A program made the position numbers and the translations under genes. DNA of 64,000 nt from Fimbriiglobus sp. (GTDB lineage Bacteria; Planctomycetota; Planctomycetia; Gemmatales; Gemmataceae): NCBI GenBank assembly GCA_036493815.1, contig DASXPC010000221.1, positions 11,174-75,173 on the forward strand. Reading direction: 5' to 3'. The notes under the pieces were generated by a model that saw nothing but the letters and a program-made list of their open reading frames with translations, ran no database searches and was not told the DNA's origin. Shown here piece by piece: positions 14,412-63,341 of this stretch (within the stretch, counting starts at the first letter, position 1; each line of letters starts with the position of its first letter).

Positions 14412-15299
14412 TCAGGAAGGCTCTGCGGGAGGCACCCAACCCGCTTCCACAAACGCTTCTTCGAGCAGGTCCGATAGATTCAAATCTGCGGCCCACCGCC
14501 GTAGGTACGCCCCGTCGAGATGGTCGGCTTGCGTTTTGATCATGCCTTGGACGTCCCCCCACTGCCGGTCGGAGACACCGCCACCGAGGCGGAACCAGTC
14601 TAGCTTCAGGAGGATCATGTCTTCCGCAGTAAAAAGCATGACCTCACCGCCGGGAACCTCCGCAAATGGGAAGGGGAATCTGCGGCCGAACGCCGAACGG
14701 TCGAACGGCTTGTCCTTTTGAACGAATACGTCGATCTTGTAACCGGTCGGCGGGTGGAGAATGTTGAACGACGAACGCGTCCGGATCGCTTCGCGGACGG
14801 CTTGCTCGGACAAGTAGTATTCGCTCTCAGGGAAAGACGAGAGGAAGGCGTCAACTTTTCCGCCAAACGGAACTGCGGTCAGATCGGCATCCCGTGTCAT
14901 TCGCCCAATTCCGTGGAGCGAACTGGCAATCGATCCGCCGATAGCGTATTCGATTCCGAGACGATCCAGCGTCCGAATGGTATGGAATAGGATGGGTTTC
15001 ACGTCGTCAGAGATCGAGTCCATGAGCATCTCCGAAAACTGGCAGTTCCACCCGCTTCCGAACGAGTGCCCAAGCCACTCAATCTGAATCTCGCGATTCG
15101 ATGCGTTCGGATTTCGATGACTGTATCCGGCTCGATGGAGAGACCGGGCCATTCGATAATCTTCGAATAAGTTCTGCCACCGTTGTGCCACCGACATCCG
15201 GCGGTAGCTTTCGACGAGCATCCGTTCCACGTCCGGCGACGTATCGCTGATTCCACGCACGCGCTCGCCCTCCTGAAAACTTCCGACATTAAACCACAA
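14412..15299 (-). CDS. nucleotidyltransferase-fold protein (MNT/AbiEii-like core), family unverified
   Basis: YAIGGSIASSLHGIGRMTRDADL matches the GS...DxD nucleotidyltransferase signature. The track start is TTG. Alternative starts are GTG at 15260 and ATG at 15221. Confidence 0.5.
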   Translation of the reverse strand: MWFNVGSFQEGERVRGISDTSPDVERMLVESYRRMSVAQRWQNLFEDYRMARSLHRAGYSHRNPNASNREIQIEWLGHSFGSGWNCQFSEMLMDSISDDVKPILFHTIRTLDRLGIEYAIGGSIASSLHGIGRMTRDADLTAVPFGGKVDAFLSSFPESEYYLSEQAVREAIRTRSSFNILHPPTGYKIDVFVQKDKPFDRSAFGRRFPFPFAEVPGGEVMLFTAEDMILLKLDWFRLGGGVSDRQWGDVQGMIKTQADHLDGAYLRRWAADLNLSDLLEEAFVEAGWVPPAEPS

Positions 15300-38419: not shown

Positions 38420-41400
38420 CTATTCGTCCTTGAATTTACTGAGAAGTTTCTTCAGTTCTTCGATCATCTTTTCCTTTACGCCTTCGTGTTCGTCGTCCTC
38501 GTCGCCGGTATCGACGGTGACTTCTTCGGACGAGGTGACCCCGGCCGGGAGGTTGGGGTCGTTTTCGACGGCGAATCCCTGGGAGTAATCCTTGCCGTCG
38601 ACGGTGAGGGTTACGCGGTAGCTGCCTGCGAGGATGACACCTCCTCGGCCGAAGCCTCCTCGGCCTCGGCCGCCGCCCCCGCCGAAGCCGCCTCGGCCCC
38701 CACGACCGCCCTGGTCGCCACCGATGGTGCCGCGGGCGAGCGTCCATTGCAGGTGGTGGAAGCCGGCCGTTTTCGGCGGCGTGACGAATTCGCAAACGAC
38801 CTTATTCGACACGTCGAAGATTTTCAGCGTCACGGTCTTTGCGGCGTCTTTCAGGAAGTAGTCGACGGCCGTGCCGCGGGGCGGGTTGGAGCCGACAAAC
38901 TTGCGGAGCGTTTCGGAATACGGCGATTCCCCGCCGGCGCCGATCCGCCACTTGACGGCCGGGGCAGGTGCGAACAACGTGGCATCCTCCTTGAACGTCT
39001 CGGGTTTCATCTGGCGGATGCTACTGATGTCGGCCACCCAGAGGCTGCGGCCGTGGGTCGCTATCACGATTTCTTCGGCCACCGTCGGCTGGGCGAACTC
39101 GTGCACCGCCACGGTCGGAAGGTTGTCGCCGAACTTCGTCCACGACGCGCCTTTATTCGCCGACACGAACGCCCCGAACTCGGTCCCGCAATAGAGCACC
39201 TGCGGGTTCTTGTAGTCTTCCCGAATGCAGCGGGTGGAACCGAATTCGGGCAAGTTGTGACTGATGTTTTTCCAACTCGCCCCGTAGTCGTCGGTGACCA
39301 GGATATAGGGTTTGTCGTCGTTACTGCGGTGGGCGTCGAGGGCGACGTAGCATTTGCCTTCCCGTTCCCGCGACGGTTCGAGGGCGGCGACGCACCGCGG
39401 GCCCGGTACGCCGGCCTTGTGAAGGTTTTCCGTGATGTTCTTCCAATTGAGGCCGCCGTCCCGGGTGACCCAGAGGTAGCCGTCGTCGGTGCCGACGTAG
39501 AGCAGGTCCGGGTTTTTCGGAGATTCGGCGAGAGCGGTTGCACTGCCGTTCTTGGTCCGGGTGATGTCGGGTGAAATCTTCTTAAGGGCGGACCCCTTCT
39601 CGATGGACCGGAAAACGTACTGGCCGGCCGAGTAGAAGATGCTCGAGTTGTGGCTGGAAAGGATGTATGGGGTATTCCAGTTGAAACGCAGGGCTTCGGT
39701 CCGGCCTCCGCCGGCTCCGCCGCGGCCCCCACCCCCACCTCCACCGGCTCCGCCGCGGCCACCGCCTCCAATCCCCGGCCGGGCTCCGCCCTGCTCGCCG
39801 GTACGGAGATTCCGACGTTGAATCGCACCGCCCTGACTTTCAGCGTAGATCAGGTCGGGGTCGTTCGGATCGACCCGGCAGACGAACCCGTCGCCGCCGT
39901 TGATGTAGATGGAATCTTCGTTGTACGGCCCGGTGCGGCGGAGGGTGGCCGACGGGAGGCCCCAACTGCCGTTGTCCTGGAGGCCGCCGTAGACGTGGTA
40001 GGGTCGTTTGTTGTCCACGGCGACATGGTAGAACTGGCCGATGGCGACGTGGTTGAGGTGGTCCCACGTGGCACCCCGATCGTATGTGCAATAGGTCCCA
40101 CCGTCGCAGCCGACGAGCATGTGTTTGGCGTTAGCGGGGTCGATCCAAAAGGCGTGCAGGTCGGCGTGCACGCCGCGGACAGGGGCCTGGGAAAAAGTTT
40201 TACCCGAGTCGGTAGTGCGGTAAAGGCCGGCCGAGTTCCCGCCGCCGTTTCCGGTGTCGGCCAGGACGTAGACGTTTTTCGAGTCGGTCGGGTCGACGCG
40301 GATTTGGCTGAAGTACATGGGCCTCGGGTTGAGGCTGTTGACGCGGGTCCAGGTGCTGCCGCTATCTTTGCTCATGAAGACGCCGCCGGTCTGGTAGCCG
40401 TCCTTGCCCTGTCGGTCCTGAACGTTCGGCCGTTGTCCGCCGAGCCCGAGTCCATTGGGCCGGGCCGGGTTCGCCCCACGTCCGCCACCGCCGCCGCCGA
40501 AAGGCAGTTGCAGCGGCGTTTCGACGAGGGCGAGTTCGAGAGTGGTTTCTTTTTCGCCTTGTTTGAACGTGATTTTCACTTTGTCACCGGCCTTCCGAGG
40601 ATCTTCGGACCGGGCGGTGACGCGAAGTTCTGTGAGAAGTTCGCGGAAATCTTCGACGGCGACTCCGTTCACTTTGGTGACAAGCGCGCCCGGCTTGATG
40701 CCGCCTTTTTCGACCGGACCACCCGCGGGGACTTTTTCGACCGTGACCGGTTCACCGAATCCGACGGCCGGCGTAAATCCGGGCATGAGGATGGTATTGG
40801 CTCCCTGGGCTCCGCCCCGTCCGCCGGCTCCGCCTCGTCCGCCGGCTCCACCACGCCCGCCGCCAGCCCCGCCCCGTCCGCCGCGGCCGCCTCCTTGAGC
40901 AGCCGCGGCCGCCTGGGCGTCTTCCGGACGTACGCCGAGAATCAGGTCGATGACCATGTCTTTACCGTCCCGCTTGATCGCCACCAGGACCTTGTCCCCG
41001 GGCTTCTTGGTTCGGACGTATTCCAGCATTTTGTCGTTGTCATCGAATTTCTTGCCGTCCACTGTAATGATGACGTCGCCGGCCTTGAACCCGGCCTTCT
41101 CGCTCGGCCCGCCCTCGGTGACCGACTCGATTTTGATGCCGACGTCTTTCACGTCCTCGGCCACGATACCCATGTAAATGGGCAGGTTTGCATTCCCCTT
41201 GCCGACGTCTTCAGTGTCGATGATGGCGTACACCACGCCCTTGGTTCGCAAAGAGAAATCGATGCCGATCCGGCCGGTTTTTACGGTCGGCAGTCCGTTC
41301 CCCTTGTTGTTCTTCACGTCGTTAATTTTCTTCCACGTCTTTCCGCCGTCGGTCGTCTTGAAGATGCCGCCGCCGGGTCCGTGGGATACGACGGGGCCGT

Positions 41401-42301
41401 ACTGGTCGGGGACGTCGGCCGGCTGGGTTCCGGGGAAGTAGCCGTCGTACTCGTCCCGTTTCCGGTTCCACATGCCGACGACCAGCGTGTTCGGGTCGAA
41501 CGGGTCCATGCAGAAGTCGATGACGCCGGTCTTGTCGTCGACGTAGAGGACCTTGTCCCACGTCTTGCCGCCGTCGGTCGATTTGAACAGGCCGCGCTCC
41601 TCGTTCGGGCCGTAAAGCCGGCCGAGGGCGCCGACGTAGACAATGTTCGGGTCTTTAGGGTGGACGACGATCTTGCCGATTTGGAACGACTGCTTGAGGC
41701 CGACGTGATTCCAGGTTTTTCCGCCGTCGGTGCTCTTGTAGACGCCGTCGCCGTAGGAAACGGAGTTGCGCGGGTTCTTTTCGCCGGTGCCGACGTAAAC
41801 GATATTCGGGTTCGACGGGGCGTGGGCGACGTCGCCGATGGAAACGGTCGTCTCCTTATCGAACTGGTGTTCGAAGGTGGTGCCGTTGTTGGTGGTTTTA
41901 AGCAGACCCCCGGACGCGGTCGCGATCCAGTACGTGGAGGGGTCGTTGTCGACGACCGAGAAGCCGACGATCCGGCCGCTCATGTTTGCCGGGCCGATAC
42001 TCCGCCAGGTTATCTGCTTGCTGACCGATTCGGGAATGGTCCCTTCGACCGGAGTTTTCGTCGGGGAAGGAGCGCCTTCCTTTTTCTTTCCGGCGGAATT
42101 GGACGTCGTACCTTTCAACTCTTCCGCTTGCTTTTTCAACGCCTCGATCTGCTTTTGTATCTCTTCGATCTTTTTCTGTTTCGCGTCCTTCGTTTGTGGC
42201 TGCCCGTCGTCGGATTGGGCCCGGCTATTCGGCAGGGCGATCAGGAGGGCGAACATCAGGAGCAGGAACGACCATCGACTGAGGGATACGATGCGGCTCA
42301 C
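38420..42301 (-). CDS. BNR/sortilin(VPS10)-like beta-propeller protein with two inserted PDZ domains and four Gly/Arg-rich tracts
   Basis: GTG start with a signal peptide. It has many Asp-box motifs (STDGGKTW x3, TTDGGKTW, SKDSGSTW, TTDSGKTF, TRDGGLNW, TDDYGASW) and PDZ-like segments (GGPSEKAGFKAGDVIITVDG; GGPVEKGGIKPGALVTKVNG). Confidence 0.85.
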   Translation of the reverse strand: MSRIVSLSRWSFLLLMFALLIALPNSRAQSDDGQPQTKDAKQKKIEEIQKQIEALKKQAEELKGTTSNSAGKKKEGAPSPTKTPVEGTIPESVSKQITWRSIGPANMSGRIVGFSVVDNDPSTYWIATASGGLLKTTNNGTTFEHQFDKETTVSIGDVAHAPSNPNIVYVGTGEKNPRNSVSYGDGVYKSTDGGKTWNHVGLKQSFQIGKIVVHPKDPNIVYVGALGRLYGPNEERGLFKSTDGGKTWDKVLYVDDKTGVIDFCMDPFDPNTLVVGMWNRKRDEYDGYFPGTQPADVPDQYGPVVSHGPGGGIFKTTDGGKTWKKINDVKNNKGNGLPTVKTGRIGIDFSLRTKGVVYAIIDTEDVGKGNANLPIYMGIVAEDVKDVGIKIESVTEGGPSEKAGFKAGDVIITVDGKKFDDNDKMLEYVRTKKPGDKVLVAIKRDGKDMVIDLILGVRPEDAQAAAAAQGGGRGGRGGAGGGRGGAGGRGGAGGRGGAQGANTILMPGFTPAVGFGEPVTVEKVPAGGPVEKGGIKPGALVTKVNGVAVEDFRELLTELRVTARSEDPRKAGDKVKITFKQGEKETTLELALVETPLQLPFGGGGGGRGANPARPNGLGLGGQRPNVQDRQGKDGYQTGGVFMSKDSGSTWTRVNSLNPRPMYFSQIRVDPTDSKNVYVLADTGNGGGNSAGLYRTTDSGKTFSQAPVRGVHADLHAFWIDPANAKHMLVGCDGGTYCTYDRGATWDHLNHVAIGQFYHVAVDNKRPYHVYGGLQDNGSWGLPSATLRRTGPYNEDSIYINGGDGFVCRVDPNDPDLIYAESQGGAIQRRNLRTGEQGGARPGIGGGGRGGAGGGGGGGRGGAGGGRTEALRFNWNTPYILSSHNSSIFYSAGQYVFRSIEKGSALKKISPDITRTKNGSATALAESPKNPDLLYVGTDDGYLWVTRDGGLNWKNITENLHKAGVPGPRCVAALEPSREREGKCYVALDAHRSNDDKPYILVTDDYGASWKNISHNLPEFGSTRCIREDYKNPQVLYCGTEFGAFVSANKGASWTKFGDNLPTVAVHEFAQPTVAEEIVIATHGRSLWVADISSIRQMKPETFKEDATLFAPAPAVKWRIGAGGESPYSETLRKFVGSNPPRGTAVDYFLKDAAKTVTLKIFDVSNKVVCEFVTPPKTAGFHHLQWTLARGTIGGDQGGRGGRGGFGGGGGRGRGGFGRGGVILAGSYRVTLTVDGKDYSQGFAVENDPNLPAGVTSSEEVTVDTGDEDDEHEGVKEKMIEELKKLLSKFKDE

Positions 42302-42593
42302 GGCAGGGTCTCTCTAAACGGGATGAGAAAAAGCCGGCGGGTGGGAAGTCCGACCCGTCCGTCAGAATACCGATGCGAACGGATCATGTTCCCTATTGTC
42401 CCGATCCTATCCAGACGGGAATGCAATCGCCAGCAGGGAGTGATGAAAGAGGGATGAGAACGGCATGGAACGGTAATTCGTTCCGTGTAACTATTGCAAA
42501 GGTAGTACTGCGAATTACACAACATTACAAAATCGTAATCTTGCACACTTAGATTCGCTGGCGAAAAGACCTATTGGAAAGAAAATATGTATT

Positions 42594-42609
42594 TGGCACG
42601 GGGGCTGCA
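42594..42609 (+). promoter_or_regulatory. sigma54-type -24/-12 promoter-like element (near consensus)
   Basis: TGGCACGGGGGCTGCA compared with the consensus TGGCACG-N4-TTGCW. GG at 42595-42596 and GC at 42607-42608 have the 12-nt offset. The single mismatch is C for T at -14. It is preceded by an AT-rich tract containing ATTAC-N6-GTAAT (42524-42539). Confidence 0.45.
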
Positions 42610-42621
42610 TTAGTGTGATTT

Positions 42622-42835
42622 GTCATCCGCGATTCCCCCGAATCCCTGGCGGATGACGCGATGCGGGGCCGGTCCCTTCCCCCGGACCGACCCCGCGAGA
42701 CGGGCCGAGCGGTGTGGTCGCCGATTCCCCCCGTGCGACCGCCGGCATTCCCCCGCCGACGCTCGGTTCGGACCCTTCCCCCTTCCTGTCTGCTTTCCCC
42801 CAATCACGGGCCGCCGGCTCCCCCGCCGGCGGCCC
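42622..42835 (+). ncRNA. candidate repeated-loop structured RNA (array of hairpins displaying TTCCCCC); transcribed strand not established
   Basis: There are 7 copies of (T)TCCCCC. Stems are A 42622-30/42649-57, B 42670-75/42684-89 (+42663-68/42691-96), C 42716-21/42735-40 and E 42808-18/42825-35, each with the motif in its loop. See finding. Confidence 0.4.
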
Positions 42836-42912
42836 GCGTCGTTTCCGCATTCATCCCGGCCGGGTTGGCGCTTATAATCGAATGCACCACCGGAACGGGT
42901 ACCGCCACCGCC

Positions 42913-43341
42913 ATGCAACCGATCTACGTTGCCGCCCCACATTTCAATTTGCCGGAAGCCCCTGCGCCGACCACGGCGTCGGAAGTGGGCGATTTACTCC
43001 GTCACCTGATCGACGGACAACGCGATCAAACCGGCCTCCTCCGCGGCTTGCTCGCGTCGCAGGATCAAAGCCCGAAGTGGAAGGCACTTCTCGCCCGATG
43101 GCATGATGAATTTCCGAACGTGGGGTCGAGTTGCAGGGCCGTGCTTCCCGCCGTGGAGCGGGTTTTCCTGACGATGGTGAATGAAGTGACCGAAAAACTT
43201 TCGGACTCCAGCGCGGACGAGCTGGAAAGCGACTATGCCCTCGGCGAGTTTCTGGACCGATACGGCACGCGTCTGAATCAACTGGCCGGGATCATCAACC
43301 AGCTCACCCCCTTGGCGGAAAACGCCTCGGCACCGACTTAA
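42913..43341 (+). CDS. hypothetical helical protein (142 aa) immediately upstream of the giant TPR gene
   Basis: ATG at 42913, with TATAAT at 42873-42878 upstream. Predicted all-helical. The stop is 14 nt before the TPR gene start. Confidence 0.55.
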   Translation: MQPIYVAAPHFNLPEAPAPTTASEVGDLLRHLIDGQRDQTGLLRGLLASQDQSPKWKALLARWHDEFPNVGSSCRAVLPAVERVFLTMVNEVTEKLSDSSADELESDYALGEFLDRYGTRLNQLAGIINQLTPLAENASAPT

Positions 43342-43355
43342 CGCACGACCGAATT

Positions 43356-46300
43356 GTGGCGGAAACTGCGTCGCCTATTTTGAATACCGTAGACCCGGCC
43401 GACGATCGCATGGACCTGACCCCCGCAGACCTTTCCCCGATCCGCGAGCTGTATACCGCCGGGCGGTATTTTACGGCCCACGCGGAAGGGGCGCGATTCG
43501 GGCCGTACCGGCAGTGGAAGGGGCCGGGCGGAATGGTGCTCGCCGGCCGGTTGGCTATGCAACTCGGGGCCCCGAAGTTTGGCCGCCGACTCCACCTCGC
43601 TGCCGTCCGCCAATTTCCCGTTAACCTCGAAGTCGTCTATTACCACGGCCGGTATCGCATGGAGCGGTTCGGCCCACTCGCCTGCTGGCGGTTTCTGAAA
43701 CTCCATCCCGATTGGTCCGATGCCGCACCGGAGCTACGCGGAGACTGGCTCGCCCTATCCGGATTTGTCGCGGCCCGGCTGCGGGATTTCGACCGGGCCG
43801 ACCGGTTTCTGAATCAGGCCGAAGCGATGGCTCCGAACCGGCCCTGGGTCGCCGTCGAACGGGCGGCGGCGTTCGAGGCGGCCGAGCGGTACGAAGACGC
43901 GCTCGCGTCGGCCCGCCGAAGCCTCGAATTGCAGCCTTGGTTCCGTCCGGGGGTTCAAGCCGCGGCCCACGTCTTACAGAAGCTCGGCCGGGAATCTGAA
44001 GCGATAACCCTTCTCACCGATGCCGTCGAATTTACCGAAAGTGGGCTGATCGTCGCCCAGCTCATCTCTTCCCTGCTCGACGCGCGAAGAGCGGAGGACA
44101 TATCAAAGAGGAATTTGCTCGATCGGTACGAGGAATTGGCACCGCTACGGGAGAAGGAAATTCGCCAATGGCTGTCGGCCCGGCGGTCGGATGTTACGTA
44201 TTTACTCGGCGATACCTGTTCTGCCGCGAAACATGCCCGCGAAGTCAGGGACGACTTTTACGGAGCCTTTGCCCGTGCACTCGAACAATCCGGGGCCGCG
44301 ACGGACCGAAAAATCTTGCCGATCGACATGTCGTACGGAGAAAAGCCGCCAACCGCCCATGATTTGCTCGGCCGATTCTGGGGAATCCCATTCCCTACGG
44401 CTATGGACGACCGCGATTTCACGGACGACGTTCCGGACCCGAGTGACCGGAAGCGAGCCGAGGAGGCGGGCTGGACCGCGGCCGAGTTCACCTTGACCGC
44501 GGATTCCGCTTTCGGATTGTTGGACGCCGGTGTCCCATTCCTCATTACACTGGTCGAAGTCGGAGTGAGTCAGTCGCGGATGGCGATCGGTTACGACCGT
44601 CTCCGACACACGCTATTCCTTGCCGACGGTCAGGATCGGAAGCCGGTCGAGGCCCCACTTTCTGTGTTGTTGTCCCGGTATCGCTCGACCGGTCCGCGGG
44701 CGATCGCCTTCGTTCCGCCGGGGTCGGACAAAACCTGCCTTCTCGCCGGCCTGCCGGACCAGGATGCGTTCACCGCCCTTTATGCGGTTCTGTCGCAGTG
44801 TTGTACCTGGAATTGGCGCGTCGTCCGCGAGTCGTACGACGCGATGGCGGCCCGGTTCCCACAGCACCGATTGACAAAATGGGCCGCTTTGAACCTGGCT
44901 AAAACCCTCGGGCACCCGGTGGAGCAATTACAGGCGGCGGAATCGCTGTTGAAAGAGTTCCCGACCGATCCGACACTGTTAGTCGCTAAGGCGGCAGCCC
45001 TGCGGGACTTGGGTCGTGTCCGTGAACGTCTGGAGTTGCTACGGGTATTCGGCGGGAAATCGGACGCCGATCCGTTGTTGATGCAGTCGCTTGCTCAGAT
45101 GCTGCTCACCGACCCACGGGATCAGGCCGAAGCGGAGCGGTTGTTGCGGCGGTCGGTGCGGGTTCGACCGCAGGCCGCAGCGGGGTATTACCTGCTCGGG
45201 TCTCAATCGTGGGAGCGGCAGGACTTCGGCCCCGCGGCCGATTACTATCGTTTTTCCTGCTGCCTTGACGACCGGGAAGACCAGTTCGCCGACGCATATT
45301 TCCGGGTGGCCCGGTGCGTCGGTCAGGCCCCGGAGGCCCTTCGCCTGTTCCAACAGCGGGTGACACGAACGGCCGCGTCGCCTCCCTCGGCGGTGCGAGC
45401 GTTGTTTAACGCACTGTTCGACCGGGACGAACCGGCCCAGGCGTTCGCCGCACTGAATAAAGCGGTCGAAAAGCTGACTCCTCCGCCGCCGGGAGAAGAA
45501 AAAACGCTGGCGGAGATATTACTTTTTCGGGCGGAGGTGCGGGCAAATTTCGGCGAGTTCGAGGAAGCGGAATCGGACCTTTCGATGGCACGGTCAGCCG
45601 CCCCGGCCGGTGTCTGGCACCGGACCGCCGCCCGGATCGCACGAGTGAAGCCCGACTTGGCGGCCGCGATCTTCCACCTCCGGGCGGCCGTCGATCTCGA
45701 CCCGCTCTGGGCCGACGGGCATCGATTGTTGGTCGGCTTGCTCCTCGATACCGACGGCCGGATCGCAGCCACTACGTATCTCGACGCAGCCTGTGTCCGG
45801 CACCCCTGCTTCTACCCGCTCGTTCGACTCCGTGCCGAATTGTACAGCCCCGAAACGGACGATCGCGGCGTGGCGGCGGTCGAAGGGATGATCGCGGCCT
45901 GTCCGGCCGACGCCTGGGCACACCGGCAGAAAGCCCTCATCTGTGCCGACCGCCTGGAGGACGACAAAGCCCTGGCCGCCCTCGCCGCCGCCGCCGCCCT
46001 CGAACCGGACCACCCGTCGCACTTCGCGGTGGCCGCACATACACACCGCAAGGCCGGCCGGACAGACGCCGCCATAGCCGCGTACAAGGAGGCGATCGCC
46101 TGCAACCCGGACTTCGATTTGGCCATCACCGAGTTGGTCGAAATTTGCCGCGGGCGAAAAGAAAAACTCGCGGCCCTTCGGTATGTCGCCGAACAGTTGA
46201 AGAAGCGGCCCCACACCGGCGACGGTCTAATTGCTTACCGCGATCAGATGCTCGCTCTGCTGAAAGAAGGGGAAGGGCACGAGCGGCTTTACCGCGAAGT

Positions 46301-49253
46301 GCAAAAATACCTCGACGACCGGCCTGATCTCTGGCAGTCGTGGTCGATCAACGTTCAACAACTCGCCATCCTCCACCGTACGGACGAGGCGAACGCCCTC
46401 GCCGTCGATGCGACGGAGCGCTTTCCCTTGTTGGCGAAGCTTTGGGTCGACCGGGCGGAAGTCGCCCGCCTGGCGGACCGGACGGACGACCGGATCGACG
46501 CGTTGAAGCAAGCGGTGGCGGCGGCCCCCGGCTGGACGCCGGCGTCGCGGGAATTGGCCACCGCCCTCGCCGAGGCGGGGCAGGACGACGAAGCCGTGGC
46601 CGTACTCGAACGCGCTGTCGTCCGGAACCCGCTCGACCCGCTCGCCCACGGATTTCTTTCCGAGCAGCTTTGGCACGCCGGGCATTCGCAGGAGGCCCTG
46701 GATCGGGCGAAGCGGGCTGTCCGGCACGAACCGGGATACGACGGGGCCTGGGCAGCCGTTGCCGAGTGGAGCGAACGTCTCGAAGTCCCGGACGATGCGG
46801 TTTCTCTCGCGCGCGACCTGACCCGCGAGCGGCCGGGCGATCCGCGGGTTTGGCTGCGGCTCGTTCGCCTCCTGACGGACCGGTCCGGCATCGACGAAGC
46901 CTTGTTCGCCCTGGAAAAAGCCACCGCCCTCGACCCGAGAAACGTGGAAGCCCACGACCTCAAAGCGGAAAAGCTCGCCGAGGTGGGTCGGTTCGACGAG
47001 GCATTGGCGGCGGCGAAGCCGAGCGAACTCGGGGACGAACTGCCACTGATCCTGCAGGGTCGTGCCGCGTGGGTTGAGGCCCGACGGGGGAACTATTCCG
47101 CCGCCATCGCCCCGATGCAGGCACTCGTGTCGGCTCACCCGGATTATTACTGGGGCTGGCAGCAACTGGCCGACTGGTACAACGAAACCGACCGGCCGCA
47201 AAATTACCTTGAAGCCGCCGGCGAACTCGTCCGCCTCCGCCCCGATCATCCCGTGCCCCTGGCGATGCGGGGCGAAGCCAAGATCAAACTCGACGACCGG
47301 GATGGCGGCAAGGAAGACCTTCGAGAGGCGTTGCGGCTGAACCCGCGATACGCCCCTGCGGCGGCCGTCCTCTTCGACGCCTGCCTCGACGACGGCGAAC
47401 TCCGCGACGCCCGGGCCGCCCTTGCCGTGCTGCAGGAGCACCTCACCGGACCCGAAGTCGCCGTCAAGCAGCTTCAACTCCACGCCCGGACGAACGACGA
47501 AGACGGGGCCGGCCGGGCGTTCGCTGAAGTGTGCGAACACGACGGCGAGACGAACCCGGGCGTGGTGAAGGTGGCGTACGACGCGATGCGGGACGGTGGA
47601 TTTGAATCCCGTGCGGTCGAGACGCTGAAGGCGGCCTGGCAGGCCGGTCGGCCGTTCAACCCCTGGGCCGCCATCTTCTGGGTCGATTCACCAGCCGGCC
47701 TGGAATCCACCCCGTCCGAACGGCTGGCGGCGCTTGACGCAACGGTGACCGCTTACCCGGATTTCGCCGTCGCTTACGATCGCAAAGCGGAAATCCTCGC
47801 CGAAGCAGGCCGGTTCGACGAGGCAATGGCGGCGTGTGCTCCCGTCATTCTCGGCCAACCGCCCCCCGTGGCACTGCGCGGCCGGGCCGCGTGGGTCGTT
47901 GCCGAACGGGGCGATCGGTCGAAGGCGATCACGTTGATGCAAACGGTCTTGACCGAGGACCCGAATTACGTTTGGGGTTGGCGGCAACTGGCCGGCTGGG
48001 CCGAAGCGCTCGGCCGCTCCCGCGAACACCTCACCGCCGCCGGCCACCTCGTCCGACTCTCCCCGGACGACCCGCTCGCGCTCCTGTTCCGCGGCGAAGC
48101 TCGTCGTAACGCGGGGGATCGGGTCGGCGCCCGTGAGGATTTCCGCAGGGCTTACGACCTCGACCCTAACTTCGAACTGGCCGGGATTCACCTGATCGGC
48201 GAACAACTCGCGGCGAATGACGTGGCTGGAGCGGTCGAAACCTTGCGGTCGCTTAAGGGTGAGAACCCCGGACCGCTCGTCCGGCTTCGGGCGGTGCAAG
48301 TGGCTGCCGCGAACCACGACGGCCGGGCCGCCCGGACCGAATTTCGGGCGTTGGCGGCGGATCCGACCGTGAGTCCCGCGGTACTTCGCGAGGCTGCCAC
48401 GGCCCTCGATGACGAAGGCTGGACGTTAGAGGCGGACGACGTCTTAGCCGCACGCGCGACCGACCCGGACGCCCCGCCGGCGGTGGCCACGCTTTGGGCC
48501 GAGAGGGAAGTCCAGGCCGACCGGTTCGAACGGGTCGGCGACAAGTTGCCGCTGCTGGCAAAAGGGAACCCACCGGCGGGTCGGGCGGCGGTATTGGCGT
48601 ATGCTTGGGGGCTGGTGAGTGCGGGCCGGCCGGAAGCCGCCGCCGCCGCCGTTCAGCGATTCAACGACCTGCTGCGTGCCGATGACGATTCGTGGGCCCG
48701 GGCCGGGGCGGTTTTGGCGGAAGCCCGGCACTTCGCCCTCGCCGCCGCTTGGCTTGCCGACTGGCCGAACCGCGTCGCGGTCGAAGGGTGGATGCTCCGA
48801 CCGCTGGCCGATTCGCTCCGGGCCCTCGACCGCGATGCGGAGGCATTGACCGTTTGCCGAAGTGGACTCGCCGCGAACCCGCCGCCCGACGTTGCCGCCG
48901 AGTTTCGTGGCTGGCTCGCCCTCGCCGCCGCCGAGGCGGGGGAACCCGCATCCGCAGCAAATTATCTCAAGGGTATGGACCAGATCGGCCTGCCCGATTC
49001 GGTGAAGCTGGTGCTGGCGATGGCGGAAGCTGTGCTGATGGTGAAGCAGGCCGGGCCGGACGGGAAGGTGTCGGCGTTCGGCGAAGCGAAGGAGCACCTC
49101 AGAGCCGCAGCCGACGCGTGCCCCGAAAATGCCCGCCCGCCGGGCACCGTGAGATGGTTCAAGCGTGTCGTCGCCAGACTCGGCGCCGATGCGGGCACCG
49201 TGAAAGCGAAAGTCTGGGCCTCCTGGCAGCGGGTACGGCCGTGGGTGGGGTAA
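43356..49253 (+). CDS. giant tetratricopeptide-repeat protein (1965 aa)
   Basis: GTG at 43356 (alternative ATG at 43410). Dozens of TPR-like A/L/R-rich helical hairpins and an internally duplicated 274-aa module. Confidence 0.85.
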   Translation: MAETASPILNTVDPADDRMDLTPADLSPIRELYTAGRYFTAHAEGARFGPYRQWKGPGGMVLAGRLAMQLGAPKFGRRLHLAAVRQFPVNLEVVYYHGRYRMERFGPLACWRFLKLHPDWSDAAPELRGDWLALSGFVAARLRDFDRADRFLNQAEAMAPNRPWVAVERAAAFEAAERYEDALASARRSLELQPWFRPGVQAAAHVLQKLGRESEAITLLTDAVEFTESGLIVAQLISSLLDARRAEDISKRNLLDRYEELAPLREKEIRQWLSARRSDVTYLLGDTCSAAKHAREVRDDFYGAFARALEQSGAATDRKILPIDMSYGEKPPTAHDLLGRFWGIPFPTAMDDRDFTDDVPDPSDRKRAEEAGWTAAEFTLTADSAFGLLDAGVPFLITLVEVGVSQSRMAIGYDRLRHTLFLADGQDRKPVEAPLSVLLSRYRSTGPRAIAFVPPGSDKTCLLAGLPDQDAFTALYAVLSQCCTWNWRVVRESYDAMAARFPQHRLTKWAALNLAKTLGHPVEQLQAAESLLKEFPTDPTLLVAKAAALRDLGRVRERLELLRVFGGKSDADPLLMQSLAQMLLTDPRDQAEAERLLRRSVRVRPQAAAGYYLLGSQSWERQDFGPAADYYRFSCCLDDREDQFADAYFRVARCVGQAPEALRLFQQRVTRTAASPPSAVRALFNALFDRDEPAQAFAALNKAVEKLTPPPPGEEKTLAEILLFRAEVRANFGEFEEAESDLSMARSAAPAGVWHRTAARIARVKPDLAAAIFHLRAAVDLDPLWADGHRLLVGLLLDTDGRIAATTYLDAACVRHPCFYPLVRLRAELYSPETDDRGVAAVEGMIAACPADAWAHRQKALICADRLEDDKALAALAAAAALEPDHPSHFAVAAHTHRKAGRTDAAIAAYKEAIACNPDFDLAITELVEICRGRKEKLAALRYVAEQLKKRPHTGDGLIAYRDQMLALLKEGEGHERLYREVQKYLDDRPDLWQSWSINVQQLAILHRTDEANALAVDATERFPLLAKLWVDRAEVARLADRTDDRIDALKQAVAAAPGWTPASRELATALAEAGQDDEAVAVLERAVVRNPLDPLAHGFLSEQLWHAGHSQEALDRAKRAVRHEPGYDGAWAAVAEWSERLEVPDDAVSLARDLTRERPGDPRVWLRLVRLLTDRSGIDEALFALEKATALDPRNVEAHDLKAEKLAEVGRFDEALAAAKPSELGDELPLILQGRAAWVEARRGNYSAAIAPMQALVSAHPDYYWGWQQLADWYNETDRPQNYLEAAGELVRLRPDHPVPLAMRGEAKIKLDDRDGGKEDLREALRLNPRYAPAAAVLFDACLDDGELRDARAALAVLQEHLTGPEVAVKQLQLHARTNDEDGAGRAFAEVCEHDGETNPGVVKVAYDAMRDGGFESRAVETLKAAWQAGRPFNPWAAIFWVDSPAGLESTPSERLAALDATVTAYPDFAVAYDRKAEILAEAGRFDEAMAACAPVILGQPPPVALRGRAAWVVAERGDRSKAITLMQTVLTEDPNYVWGWRQLAGWAEALGRSREHLTAAGHLVRLSPDDPLALLFRGEARRNAGDRVGAREDFRRAYDLDPNFELAGIHLIGEQLAANDVAGAVETLRSLKGENPGPLVRLRAVQVAAANHDGRAARTEFRALAADPTVSPAVLREAATALDDEGWTLEADDVLAARATDPDAPPAVATLWAEREVQADRFERVGDKLPLLAKGNPPAGRAAVLAYAWGLVSAGRPEAAAAAVQRFNDLLRADDDSWARAGAVLAEARHFALAAAWLADWPNRVAVEGWMLRPLADSLRALDRDAEALTVCRSGLAANPPPDVAAEFRGWLALAAAEAGEPASAANYLKGMDQIGLPDSVKLVLAMAEAVLMVKQAGPDGKVSAFGEAKEHLRAAADACPENARPPGTVRWFKRVVARLGADAGTVKAKVWASWQRVRPWVG

Positions 49254-62642: not shown

Positions 62643-63341
62643 TCACTTCTTGTCCGGCGGGGCGATCTTCAGGTTTACGAAGCCGGACTCGAACGCGGCG
62701 TCGGTGTCGTGGGCGACGAATACACCGACTTTTACATTGTTCGGCCAGTCAGCCTTTACAGGCTCGAATGCGTGCCAGTGCTGGCCGTCGGTACTGGACG
62801 CCGTTTCGATCGTGCTTCCCGTGCGGGCGAGCCGAAAGTATACCGGCTTGTCCTGTTTCGGATCGTCCAACGGCGTGCTGGACGACGACCATCCGCCTTG
62901 CGGGCTGTGCGCCATCTCGGCAAACGTCAGCACCCGCTTATATGTACTGCTCGCAATCCGCTCAACGCCGACATAGGCACGATATGCCCCGGCCGTATCG
63001 GTCAAAAGCAGACCCGCGTAGGCAGACGGAGTGATACCGTGTTTGGATTTCGCCGCAAGGGGTAAACGGCCCGGGAAGACTGTCACCGTGGCGACGAAGT
63101 CGCCGGTCCGGTCCTGGAGAACCTGCGGGGCGGTGAGCTTACCGCCCGTGATGTCGTAGGGGTGGGGAGTGGCCGGGATTATTATTCTCAACCTGCCTCC
63201 GGAGAGTTTCACCGTGCAGTCTTTCAACGGGTCGATGACGCTTCCCCACTTCCGGGGGATCGCGTCCGTTCCCTCTTCCTTCGGCGGTGGGGCGGCGGCC
63301 AGGCCGAGCAGGACGACGACAATCGGCAGCACTCGTGCCAC
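62643..63341 (-). CDS. secreted jelly-roll/LamG-like (DUF1349-like) protein, paralog 2
   Basis: GTG start. AAPPPKE...KDCTVKLSGGRLRIIIPA...PVYFRLARTG...STDGQHW...VKVGVFV. Confidence 0.7.
   Translation of the reverse strand: MARVLPIVVVLLGLAAAPPPKEEGTDAIPRKWGSVIDPLKDCTVKLSGGRLRIIIPATPHPYDITGGKLTAPQVLQDRTGDFVATVTVFPGRLPLAAKSKHGITPSAYAGLLLTDTAGAYRAYVGVERIASSTYKRVLTFAEMAHSPQGGWSSSSTPLDDPKQDKPVYFRLARTGSTIETASSTDGQHWHAFEPVKADWPNNVKVGVFVAHDTDAAFESGFVNLKIAPPDKK

Follow-up and report, generated by a model that had tools for sequence, protein, structure and literature searches.

The small RNA (sRNA) sX13 represses messenger RNAs (mRNAs) through loops of four or five cytosines (4C/5C) that require G-rich motifs near the start codons, and it does so independently of Hfq (PMC3771888). 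The C-rich loops of the sRNA 6C bind the AGGGGGG ribosome-binding site of panD and other G-rich 5' untranslated regions (UTRs) without a chaperone (PMC6486639), and UCCC-type loops of the Staphylococcus RNAIII/Rsa class pair with Shine-Dalgarno regions (also PMC3771888). Here, we analyzed a stretch of 64,000 nucleotides (nt) from the planctomycete Fimbriiglobus sp. (contig DASXPC010000221.1, positions 11,174 to 75,173), referred to below as the window, in which a cluster of hairpins displays the motif UCCCCC. Sequence comparison suggests that positions 42620-42845 of the window (+ strand) are very probably an independent sigma54-dependent sRNA gene, whatever its mode of action. To our knowledge, no small RNA and no post-transcriptional regulator has been characterized in the Planctomycetota.

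A string of hairpins with exposed C-rich motifs

The heptamer TTCCCCC starts at 42633, 42677, 42725, 42748, 42776, and 42795 on the + strand, and TCCCCC occurs once more at 42819. All seven copies were recovered at the positions given in the preliminary description of this DNA, and all fall within 42633-42824. Six of the nine TTCCCCC copies on the + strand of the 64 kb were located inside 170 nt, whereas we estimate an expected count of approximately 0.1 in 285 nt at the local composition. On both strands of the whole window, the heptamer was counted 17 times, compared to 20.5 ± 4.1 in dinucleotide shuffles. Since the window-wide count is at the level of the shuffles, the clustering is non-random, but the word itself is not unusual.

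Stems A, B with its extension, C, the 4-bp stem D, and E, all of which had been proposed earlier, were confirmed as exact reverse complements. Hairpin A (H1; 42622..42657, + strand, as are all hairpins described here) has an outer stem GTCATCCGC/GCGGATGAC and an inner stem GAUU/AAUC with the C5 run at its tip. Hairpin B (42663..42696) combines the stems GCGGGG/CCCCGC and CGGTCC/GGACCG under the loop CUUCCCCC, while the loop of hairpin C (42716..42740; stem GGTCGC/GCGACC) includes AUUCCCCCC, and hairpin D (42743..42758; stem CGGC/GCCG) carries the loop AUUCCCCC. In the predicted fold, two unpaired UUCCCCC motifs (42776-82 and 42795-801; 42776..42801 together) follow, directly 5' of hairpin E, which is described below as a terminator. 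Folding of the + strand of 42615-42850 yielded -126.1 kcal/mol compared to -94.5 ± 4.2 kcal/mol for dinucleotide shuffles (z = -7.5, none of 200 shuffles as good), in agreement with the hairpin array described earlier. Folding and comparative analysis showed that the RNA forms a string of hairpins in which five apical loops and two single-stranded linkers display (U)UCCCCC(A).

To collect homologous loci, an alignment (A1) of the family of the 142-amino-acid (142-aa) protein encoded downstream of the array was used as an anchor. One locus from a Gemmataceae metagenome-assembled genome and 56 metagenome loci were obtained, and L062, L063 (Fimbriiglobus ruber), and L065 were added by exact look-up. 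Protein identity to the 142-aa protein of the window ranged from 41 to 82% and was highest in L062 (82%), followed by L065 (62%) and F. ruber (47%) among the three added loci. L064 and L066 begin too near the gene to contain the whole RNA. Upstream of 142-aa homologues, more than 30 independent loci, including F. ruber, showed the full layout on the gene strand, in which an enhancer-like block and a sigma54 box are followed by three to six (U)UCCCCC(A)-loop hairpins, an unpaired C-run, a GC terminator hairpin, and a TATAAT. In F. ruber SP5, the predicted RNA is approximately 180 nt long and maps to about 736354-736537 on the minus strand of NIDE01000014.1, upstream of a 146-aa gene. The long G+C-rich terminal hairpin of these loci carries a C5 loop and is followed by a U-rich tail, and the single-stranded C-run directly before it is kept in all loci. 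The RNA accompanies the anchor subfamily with products starting with MNAP(L/I)YV or MQPIYV, and it is also found with some MHFQF-type genes, where it is positioned further upstream.

The internal hairpins vary in number and length between homologues and thus could not be aligned column by column; their support comes from folding statistics and from their reappearance with other stem sequences rather than from column-wise covariation. The first hairpin has a C5 loop in all homologues, whereas its stem sequences differ: CGCCGCGG/CCGCGGCG in F. ruber, TCGAAGCC/GGCTTCGA in L007, and GUCG/CGAC with GGUU/AACC in the core group. The inner stem of hairpin A in the window, GAUU/AAUC, is a double change relative to GGUU/AACC. 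Hairpin D retains its stem CGGC/GCCG in L065 with the loop AACCCCC. Both L065 and L063 have a counterpart of hairpin C, which there belongs to a pair of hairpins enclosed by a longer-range helix. A helix closing hairpins C and D was predicted in the window, L065, and F. ruber; we do not claim this helix, because its differences between the window and L062 were not clearly compensatory. Folding z-scores of -5.5 and -7.9 were obtained for L065 and F. ruber, respectively. The window and L062 share 91.2% identity across the RNA, compared to 51% at the third positions of codons in the 142-aa gene and 47-56% in the spacers flanking the RNA. This contrast suggests that the RNA is under purifying selection.

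We further examined the exposure of the C-runs. The 27 homologous RNAs used for this purpose contained 128 C-runs, each five to seven residues long, and no G5 run. The mean unpaired probability of runs of at least five C was 0.89, compared to 0.31 for other C residues, and CCCC was present in 105 of 128 predicted hairpin loops. As a control, the C-runs were fixed in place and the remaining sequence was shuffled. Exposure in the window was 0.89 versus 0.59 in this control (0 of 30 shuffles reached the observed value), and that in the 27 homologues was 0.89 versus 0.67 (31 of 810 shuffles). The possibility that shuffled sequences show the motif in loops as often, which the preliminary description had raised, does not hold for the window. 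Each RNA carries two to seven motif copies (median five), and the motif reaches past the C-run: the residue before it (-1) is U in 84%, the one before that (-2) is U in 55%, and the residue after it (+1) is A in 57%. The feature by which C-rich-loop pairing sRNAs are recognized, stable hairpins with four or more consecutive C exposed at their tips, is thus present in this RNA and its homologues.

Predicted promoter, upstream block, and terminator

A sigma54-type -24/-12 promoter, TGGCAC-GGGGG-CTGCA (TGGCACGGGGGCTGCA), was found at 42594..42609 on the + strand. It is the only match to TGGCAC-N5-YTGCW without a mismatch in the window, and C in place of T preceding GC is its sole difference from the consensus TGGCAC-N5-TTGCW. 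The GG at -24 and the GC at -12 put the predicted start of transcription near 42620, at the foot of stem A. The same box, TGGCAC-N5-(C/T)TGC, is located 270-350 nt before the start codon of the anchor gene in approximately 30 homologous loci. The near-consensus sigma54 element noticed earlier is hence both a unique exact match and a conserved one. Two boxes with one mismatch that retain TGGCAC, TGGCACGAGTGCTGCC and TGGCACAACGGTGGCA, were also observed in the window, at 63325-63340 (- strand) and 15175-15190 (- strand), respectively.

The candidate enhancer (upstream activating sequence, UAS) occupies 42471..42546 on the + strand and consists of GGTAATTCGTTCC, followed by GTAACTATTGCA, AATTACA, and a second ATTACA/GTAATCTTGCA. 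The upstream alignment revealed a conserved A+T-rich block, GGTAA-N3-TTACCG-(A/G)GTAATTCTTGCA-N15-GAAATTACAA. Of 27 loci, 21 carry GTAA-N4-TWCC between -120 and -157 relative to the -24 box, and 19 carry GTAA-N3-TTGC 13-14 nt further downstream. With an ATTACA near -105 from the box, the set of dyads spans approximately -157 to -100. In the window, the background of these dyad patterns is 10-11 matches per 128 kb, or approximately 0.02 per 220 nt. We infer from their locked position that the dyads are the binding sites of a sigma54 activator, that is, a bacterial enhancer-binding protein (bEBP). A published comparative analysis, which refers to previous work on the sigma54 regulon of Pirellula sp. 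strain 1, has predicted sigma54-dependent promoters and enhancer-binding proteins across the Planctomycetia (PMC12316311).

Hairpin E (42807..42845, + strand) resembles an intrinsic terminator, with the stem CGGGCCGCCGGC/GCCGGCGGCCCG, the loop UCCCCC, and the tail CGUCGUUUC. For comparison, the 3' ends of 31 loci were aligned using MAFFT (alignment A3), without fitting to any structure. The 15-bp helix was 95.4% paired in these 31 sequences, and compensatory changes were observed in 12 of its 15 pairs (74 cells); none of 500 column shuffles reached the observed value in any of five measures. When the partner strand was slid by one to three columns, pairing fell to 29-42%. The helix is followed by 4-8 U in many homologues, and the tract is strong (6-8 U) in several. 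The covarying helix and the U-tail behind it make it likely that stem E acts as the terminator of the transcript and that the element is an independent sRNA gene, not a leader. Of the stems put forward in the preliminary description, E is upheld by covariation itself, whereas the internal hairpins are upheld by the recurrence and folding statistics described above.

A covariance model of the 3' module (R1), which includes the single-stranded C-run before the terminator, was then used on both strands. R1 gave a single strong match in the window, with 56.9 bits on the + strand (42784-42845) versus 18 bits on the minus strand; the corresponding values in the other loci were 37-72 bits and 29 bits or fewer. 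It found one copy per locus and no further strong copies in the window. In the terminator helix, 13 G-U pairs were counted versus 4 A-C mismatches. The U-tail agrees in polarity (+) with the conserved promoter and with the block upstream of it. R1 also weakly matched hairpins C and D (42713-42779, + strand; 16.5 bits, E = 0.015), which is consistent with an origin of the hairpin units by internal duplication.

The conserved promoter and the terminator together bound a predicted sRNA transcript of approximately 226 nt (42620..42845, + strand), and the homologous RNAs are 113-253 nt long. The preliminary description had suggested an sRNA of roughly 220 nt or a long leader. The sRNA part of this suggestion is supported, as the RNA is bounded and conserved in the Gemmataceae; the leader part is disfavored by the terminator and by a separate TATAAT.

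Proposed mode of action and alternative readings

Our analysis makes it moderately probable that this independent, sigma54-dependent sRNA acts in trans by base pairing with G-rich sites of mRNAs. An enhancer-binding activator would bind the GTAA/TTAC-type dyads approximately 100-150 nt upstream (42471-42546) and would switch on RNA polymerase-sigma54 at TGGCAC-N5-CTGCA (42594-42609). Transcription would start near 42620 and end at hairpin E and its U-tail (42807-42845). The folded RNA would hold its UCCCCC motifs single-stranded, with no G5 run to mask them. The C5 motifs would serve as redundant seeds that pair with UGGGGGA-like stretches at or near translation-initiation regions, and this pairing would block ribosome access or alter mRNA stability. 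With several G-C pairs formed at each contact, no chaperone should be needed.

Several observations weigh against this account. Among 32 crude gene starts in the window, a run of at least four G within 25 nt was found in 2, versus a background of 8.8%, and G5 within 25 nt upstream was found in none. No complementary G-rich site was found in the 5' regions of the neighboring genes. Four to seven motif copies in one RNA and a number that varies between relatives are at least as typical of titrating RNAs of the CsrB/RsmZ/CrcZ type as of base-pairing sRNAs. As for the promoter, no activator gene was detected in the window, since the six frames contain no GAFTGA motif; a Pfam scan of 26 proteins from the window likewise revealed no bEBP, and its single weak hit to Sigma54_activat was a ComM/Mg-chelatase-type protein. 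The U-tract behind hairpin E is weak in the window (UUU, 5-6 nt past the stem) and was not flagged by a simple terminator scan, so that some read-through into the 142-aa gene is possible. Finally, the RNA is missing from approximately 19 loci with sufficient upstream sequence, mostly those of the MHFQY-type subfamily.

Almost none of the 32 crude gene starts has a recognizable Shine-Dalgarno or G-rich element in the preceding 25 nt. If this scarcity of Shine-Dalgarno sequences holds genome-wide, G-rich initiation regions are rare, and the target set of the sRNA would be selective.

The best alternative, which we regard as possible but clearly less probable than base pairing, is that the same sRNA is a protein sponge whose UCCCCC loops sequester a C-rich-specific RNA-binding protein (KH-domain, cold-shock-type, or other, conceivably Rho). 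Two to seven motif copies with a median of five, mostly at hairpin tips and with variable spacing and number, are a hallmark of titrating RNAs, and sigma54 dependence would be shared with CrcZ. The absence of G-rich sites near the crude gene starts of the window and the extension of the motif beyond the C-run (U at -1, A at +1) also fit a protein ligand. However, no cognate protein is encoded next to the RNA, and the experimentally studied bacterial C-rich-loop sRNAs that we found in the literature all act by base pairing. The lack of G5 runs in the 27 RNAs is as expected if pairing with other RNAs requires unmasked C-runs, though it is also compatible with protein binding. We know of no bacterial global regulator with specificity for UCCCCC loops. 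A sharper form of the proposal, slightly more doubtful still, is a CsrB-like sigma54-controlled sponge of new specificity, in which four to seven UCCCCC loops titrate a C-rich-binding global regulator of planctomycetes; in a bolder variant, the RNA may sequester Rho via its YC-binding sites. If the loops do bind a protein, the RNA would represent a new Csr-like titration system and a new planctomycete protein-RNA regulatory pair.

The genes around the RNA bear on both this proposal and the next. The genomic segment is typical of planctomycetes, with PSCyt/PSD1 and DUF1501 pairs, sulfatases, an RND efflux system, and ppk1 identified in Pfam scans. The RNA element sits inside a 611-nt intergenic region, with a divergent gene for a 1293-aa Sortilin/BNR/PDZ protein upstream (38420-42301, - strand). 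Downstream, the gene of the 142-aa helical protein (42913..43341, + strand, start as in the gene calls) is the syntenic anchor and lies outside the RNA. It is followed by a co-oriented gene for a giant TPR protein of the 1,900-aa class with many Pfam TPR matches (43410..49253, + strand; start taken from the L001 gene calls). The 142-aa protein had no Pfam match; its AlphaFold model consists of four helices (predicted local distance difference test score, pLDDT, 73.6), and a Foldseek search of this model against the PDB returned nothing with E below 1. By Pfam, AlphaFold, and Foldseek, the conserved neighbor is thus an acidic, helical protein without a nucleic-acid-binding signature. Its homologues are few and confined to Gemmataceae-like sequences, F. 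ruber being the sole named organism.

The 142-aa/TPR gene pair is also found in L062, L063, L064, and L066, as a strictly conserved combination of a small acidic four-helix protein (142-149 aa) with a giant TPR protein of 1,950-2,000 aa. W56, R62, W63, F67, P68, C74, E82, R83, and a GEFLD motif are invariant in the small anchor protein. Two copies of the anchor gene (L025 and L027; FWPU01000006.1, 616282-622692 and 233333-239743) are located approximately 380 kb apart on one 856-kb contig, with identical match statistics and upstream motif counts (three G5 runs, zero C-rich hairpins), and may represent a recent large duplication or inverted repeat. The MHFQY-type subfamily has a close divergent gene and conserved upstream words of its own. 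In 11 MHFQY loci (L015, L026, L029, L038, L039, L043, L047, L048, L052, L054, and L056), an alternative upstream signature was observed, consisting of CTATCAGAC, then AAAAGCCAG(C/T)(G/C)CCG, then TATAAT. This signature lies approximately 60-110 nt before the TATAAT and adjoins a divergent gene with a twin-arginine-like start; it may be an operator or promoter module.

A cis-acting leader or attenuator of the 142-aa/TPR operon, in which a factor bound to the C-rich loops decides between a stop at hairpin E and read-through, appears improbable to us. In most loci, the RNA keeps its orientation and its place next to the operon, and the weak U-tract of the window makes read-through plausible, whereas U-tracts are strong in several homologues and a conserved alternative antiterminator pairing is absent. 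The TATAAT at 42873..42878 (+ strand), which the preliminary description had noted as separate from the array, is the conserved -10 box of the downstream operon: in nearly every homologous locus, it stands between the terminator and the gene, often as TGTATAAT and approximately 40-130 nt upstream of the start codon (40-65 nt in most cases), and loci that lack the RNA have it as well. In addition, an unrelated insert of approximately 500 nt parts the RNA from the anchor gene in L030, and the RNA lies 130-470 nt further upstream, behind long spacers, in L031, L049, and L050. The operon's own TATAAT, the L030 insert, the variable spacing, and the polarity of terminator and promoter together favor an independent sRNA gene over a leader. 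By these sequence features, the 142-aa/TPR operon with its own promoter is a syntenic neighbor, not the body of the sRNA transcript. The L030 insert (L030:596-1088) appears, from a reading of its DNA, to encode two short proteins whose translated sequence resembles a small antitoxin/toxin pair.

A minus-strand transcript with GGGGGAA loops that acts as a CsrA/RsmA sponge, the other alternative of the preliminary description, is very unlikely and was rejected. The minus strand of the array does outperform its shuffles in folding (z = -5.3), which is inevitable for a series of hairpins, and the T that precedes 84% of the C-runs produces GGGGGA on that strand. CsrA-family proteins (COG1551) are also among the genes predicted to be sigma54-regulated in Planctomycetia (PMC12316311). 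Nevertheless, it is the + strand that carries the conserved promoter, enhancer, and U-tail, R1 scored 57 bits there versus 18 bits on the minus strand with the same preference in all loci, and the excess of G-U pairs over A-C mismatches (13 versus 4) points in the same direction. GGA would not be conserved in the loops, as AACCCCC or ACCCCCAG loops would give GGGGGUU or CUGGGGGU on the minus strand, and no Csr/Rsm family of Rfam matched even at E = 10.

Least likely of all, to the point of being negligible, is that the array is protein-coding, as a Pro/Arg-rich N-terminal extension of the downstream protein, or a chance or repeat-element array: the open reading frame (ORF) from ATG 42661 is present as described earlier and runs in frame into the 142-aa gene, and small ORFs have been called on either strand across the corresponding part of other contigs, but this ATG is AAG in the nearest relative (T42662A in L062), the motif copies occupy all three reading frames, homologues differ by many indels that do not preserve the frame and by hairpin number, and the gene calls start the protein at 42913, while compensatory changes, fixed position, and strong sequence conservation exclude chance, and a single copy per locus with none elsewhere in the window argues against a mobile repeat. 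The coding reading was accordingly rejected, and the earlier statement that the pattern is not a peptide repeat holds. Called ORFs of 61-78 aa without a family lie over the sRNA-equivalent region in L065:529-980 (minus strand) and in the P0005 contig (ORF 1041-1226); these are likely annotation artefacts from a G+C-rich, stop-poor hairpin array. The finding indicates that gene callers put probably spurious ORFs over the sRNA region.

Comparison with known small RNAs

No match at gathering thresholds was obtained with Rfam 15 in the whole window, in line with the earlier remark that the element belongs to no RNA family that could be recognized. In the permissive mode (E up to 10), only chance-level, sub-threshold look-alikes were reported, namely 6C, ar14, ar7, asX1, and Scr3920. 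The best permissive scores on the + strand were 19.4 bits for 6C (cut-off 47), 13.5 bits for ar14 (58.8), and 11.7 bits for ar7 (60). The 6C match (RF01066, E = 1.7-4.2) aligned hairpin B with the first 6C hairpin below the gathering cut-off, and the ar14 match (RF02344) covered hairpin E alone, the loops of the window being UCCCCC and not CCUCCUCCC. 6C, ar14, and ar7 are all C-rich-loop sRNAs, and the likeness is one of convergent design, not of membership or homology. No Rfam model of sX13 gave a match in the window. Full-text literature searches did not find a planctomycete sRNA of such a kind, and a large 2017 survey of 224 motifs did not mention planctomycetes. We class the RNA of the window as a new family within the C-rich-loop regulatory sRNAs, distinguished by its predicted sigma54/enhancer control, up to seven motifs, a motif-bearing terminator loop, and its phylum.

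Planctomycetes stand out for an unusual cell biology and for very large genomes, and many of their genes lack an assigned function. In this setting, the locus provides an sRNA gene that is delimited and evolutionarily validated, with a readable control region and an obvious functional surface, the C5 motifs. As the RNA occurs in the cultured F. ruber, it is directly testable.

The precedents named in the preliminary description, RNAIII/Rsa and CrcZ, are relevant, but two close analogues, 6C and sX13, had been missed. The closest functional model is sX13 of Xanthomonas, which is likewise trans-encoded in a G+C-rich host and has stable stems with CCCC/CCCCC apical loops. It has three such loops, compared to up to seven C5 motifs in the window RNA, belongs to another phylum, and shows no sequence homology; we know of no sigma54 promoter for sX13. 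The actinobacterial 6C (RF01066; B11 in mycobacteria) likewise consists of hairpins with loops of approximately six cytosines. Unlike the window RNA, it has two C-rich hairpins in approximately 75-100 nt, is found in Actinobacteria, and is not sigma54-dependent.

RNAIII and RsaE/RoxS share C-rich motifs in hairpin loops with the window RNA, and several loops of one RNA of the Staphylococcus RNAIII/Rsa class can contact one target. They differ in that they are from Firmicutes and have shorter motifs and different promoters; RNAIII, in addition, is 514 nt long and encodes a peptide. The CcsR/cuckoo RNAs and ar14 are similar to the window RNA as hairpin arrays with a C-rich, anti-Shine-Dalgarno-like loop (CCUCCUCCC), but the loop motif is different and they belong to Alphaproteobacteria. 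Cuckoo RNAs, moreover, share a transcript with a small-protein gene that lies upstream of them.

Two further groups resemble the window RNA in architecture or in control. CsrB, RsmY, RsmZ, and CrcZ carry many copies of a short motif, mostly in hairpin loops and in variable number, but the motif is GGA for CsrA/RsmA and an A-rich CA motif for Hfq/Crc, compared to UCCCCC in the window RNA. CrcZ is sigma54-dependent through CbrAB and titrates Hfq/Crc, whereas CsrB and RsmZ titrate CsrA. Qrr1-5 of Vibrio, GlmY of Enterobacteria, and Pxr of Myxococcus are, as predicted for the window RNA, sRNAs from -24/-12 promoters with an upstream activator, which is LuxO, GlrR, or an NtrC-like regulator. Their sequences and structures are unrelated, and they have single seeds or, in GlmY, act as a protein decoy, without a C-rich array. 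The window RNA would add a fourth or fifth independent lineage to the recurring design of C-rich loops that pair with G-rich starts in G+C-rich bacteria, and it stands apart from the other C-rich-loop designs in its unusually high motif copy number and its predicted sigma54 input.

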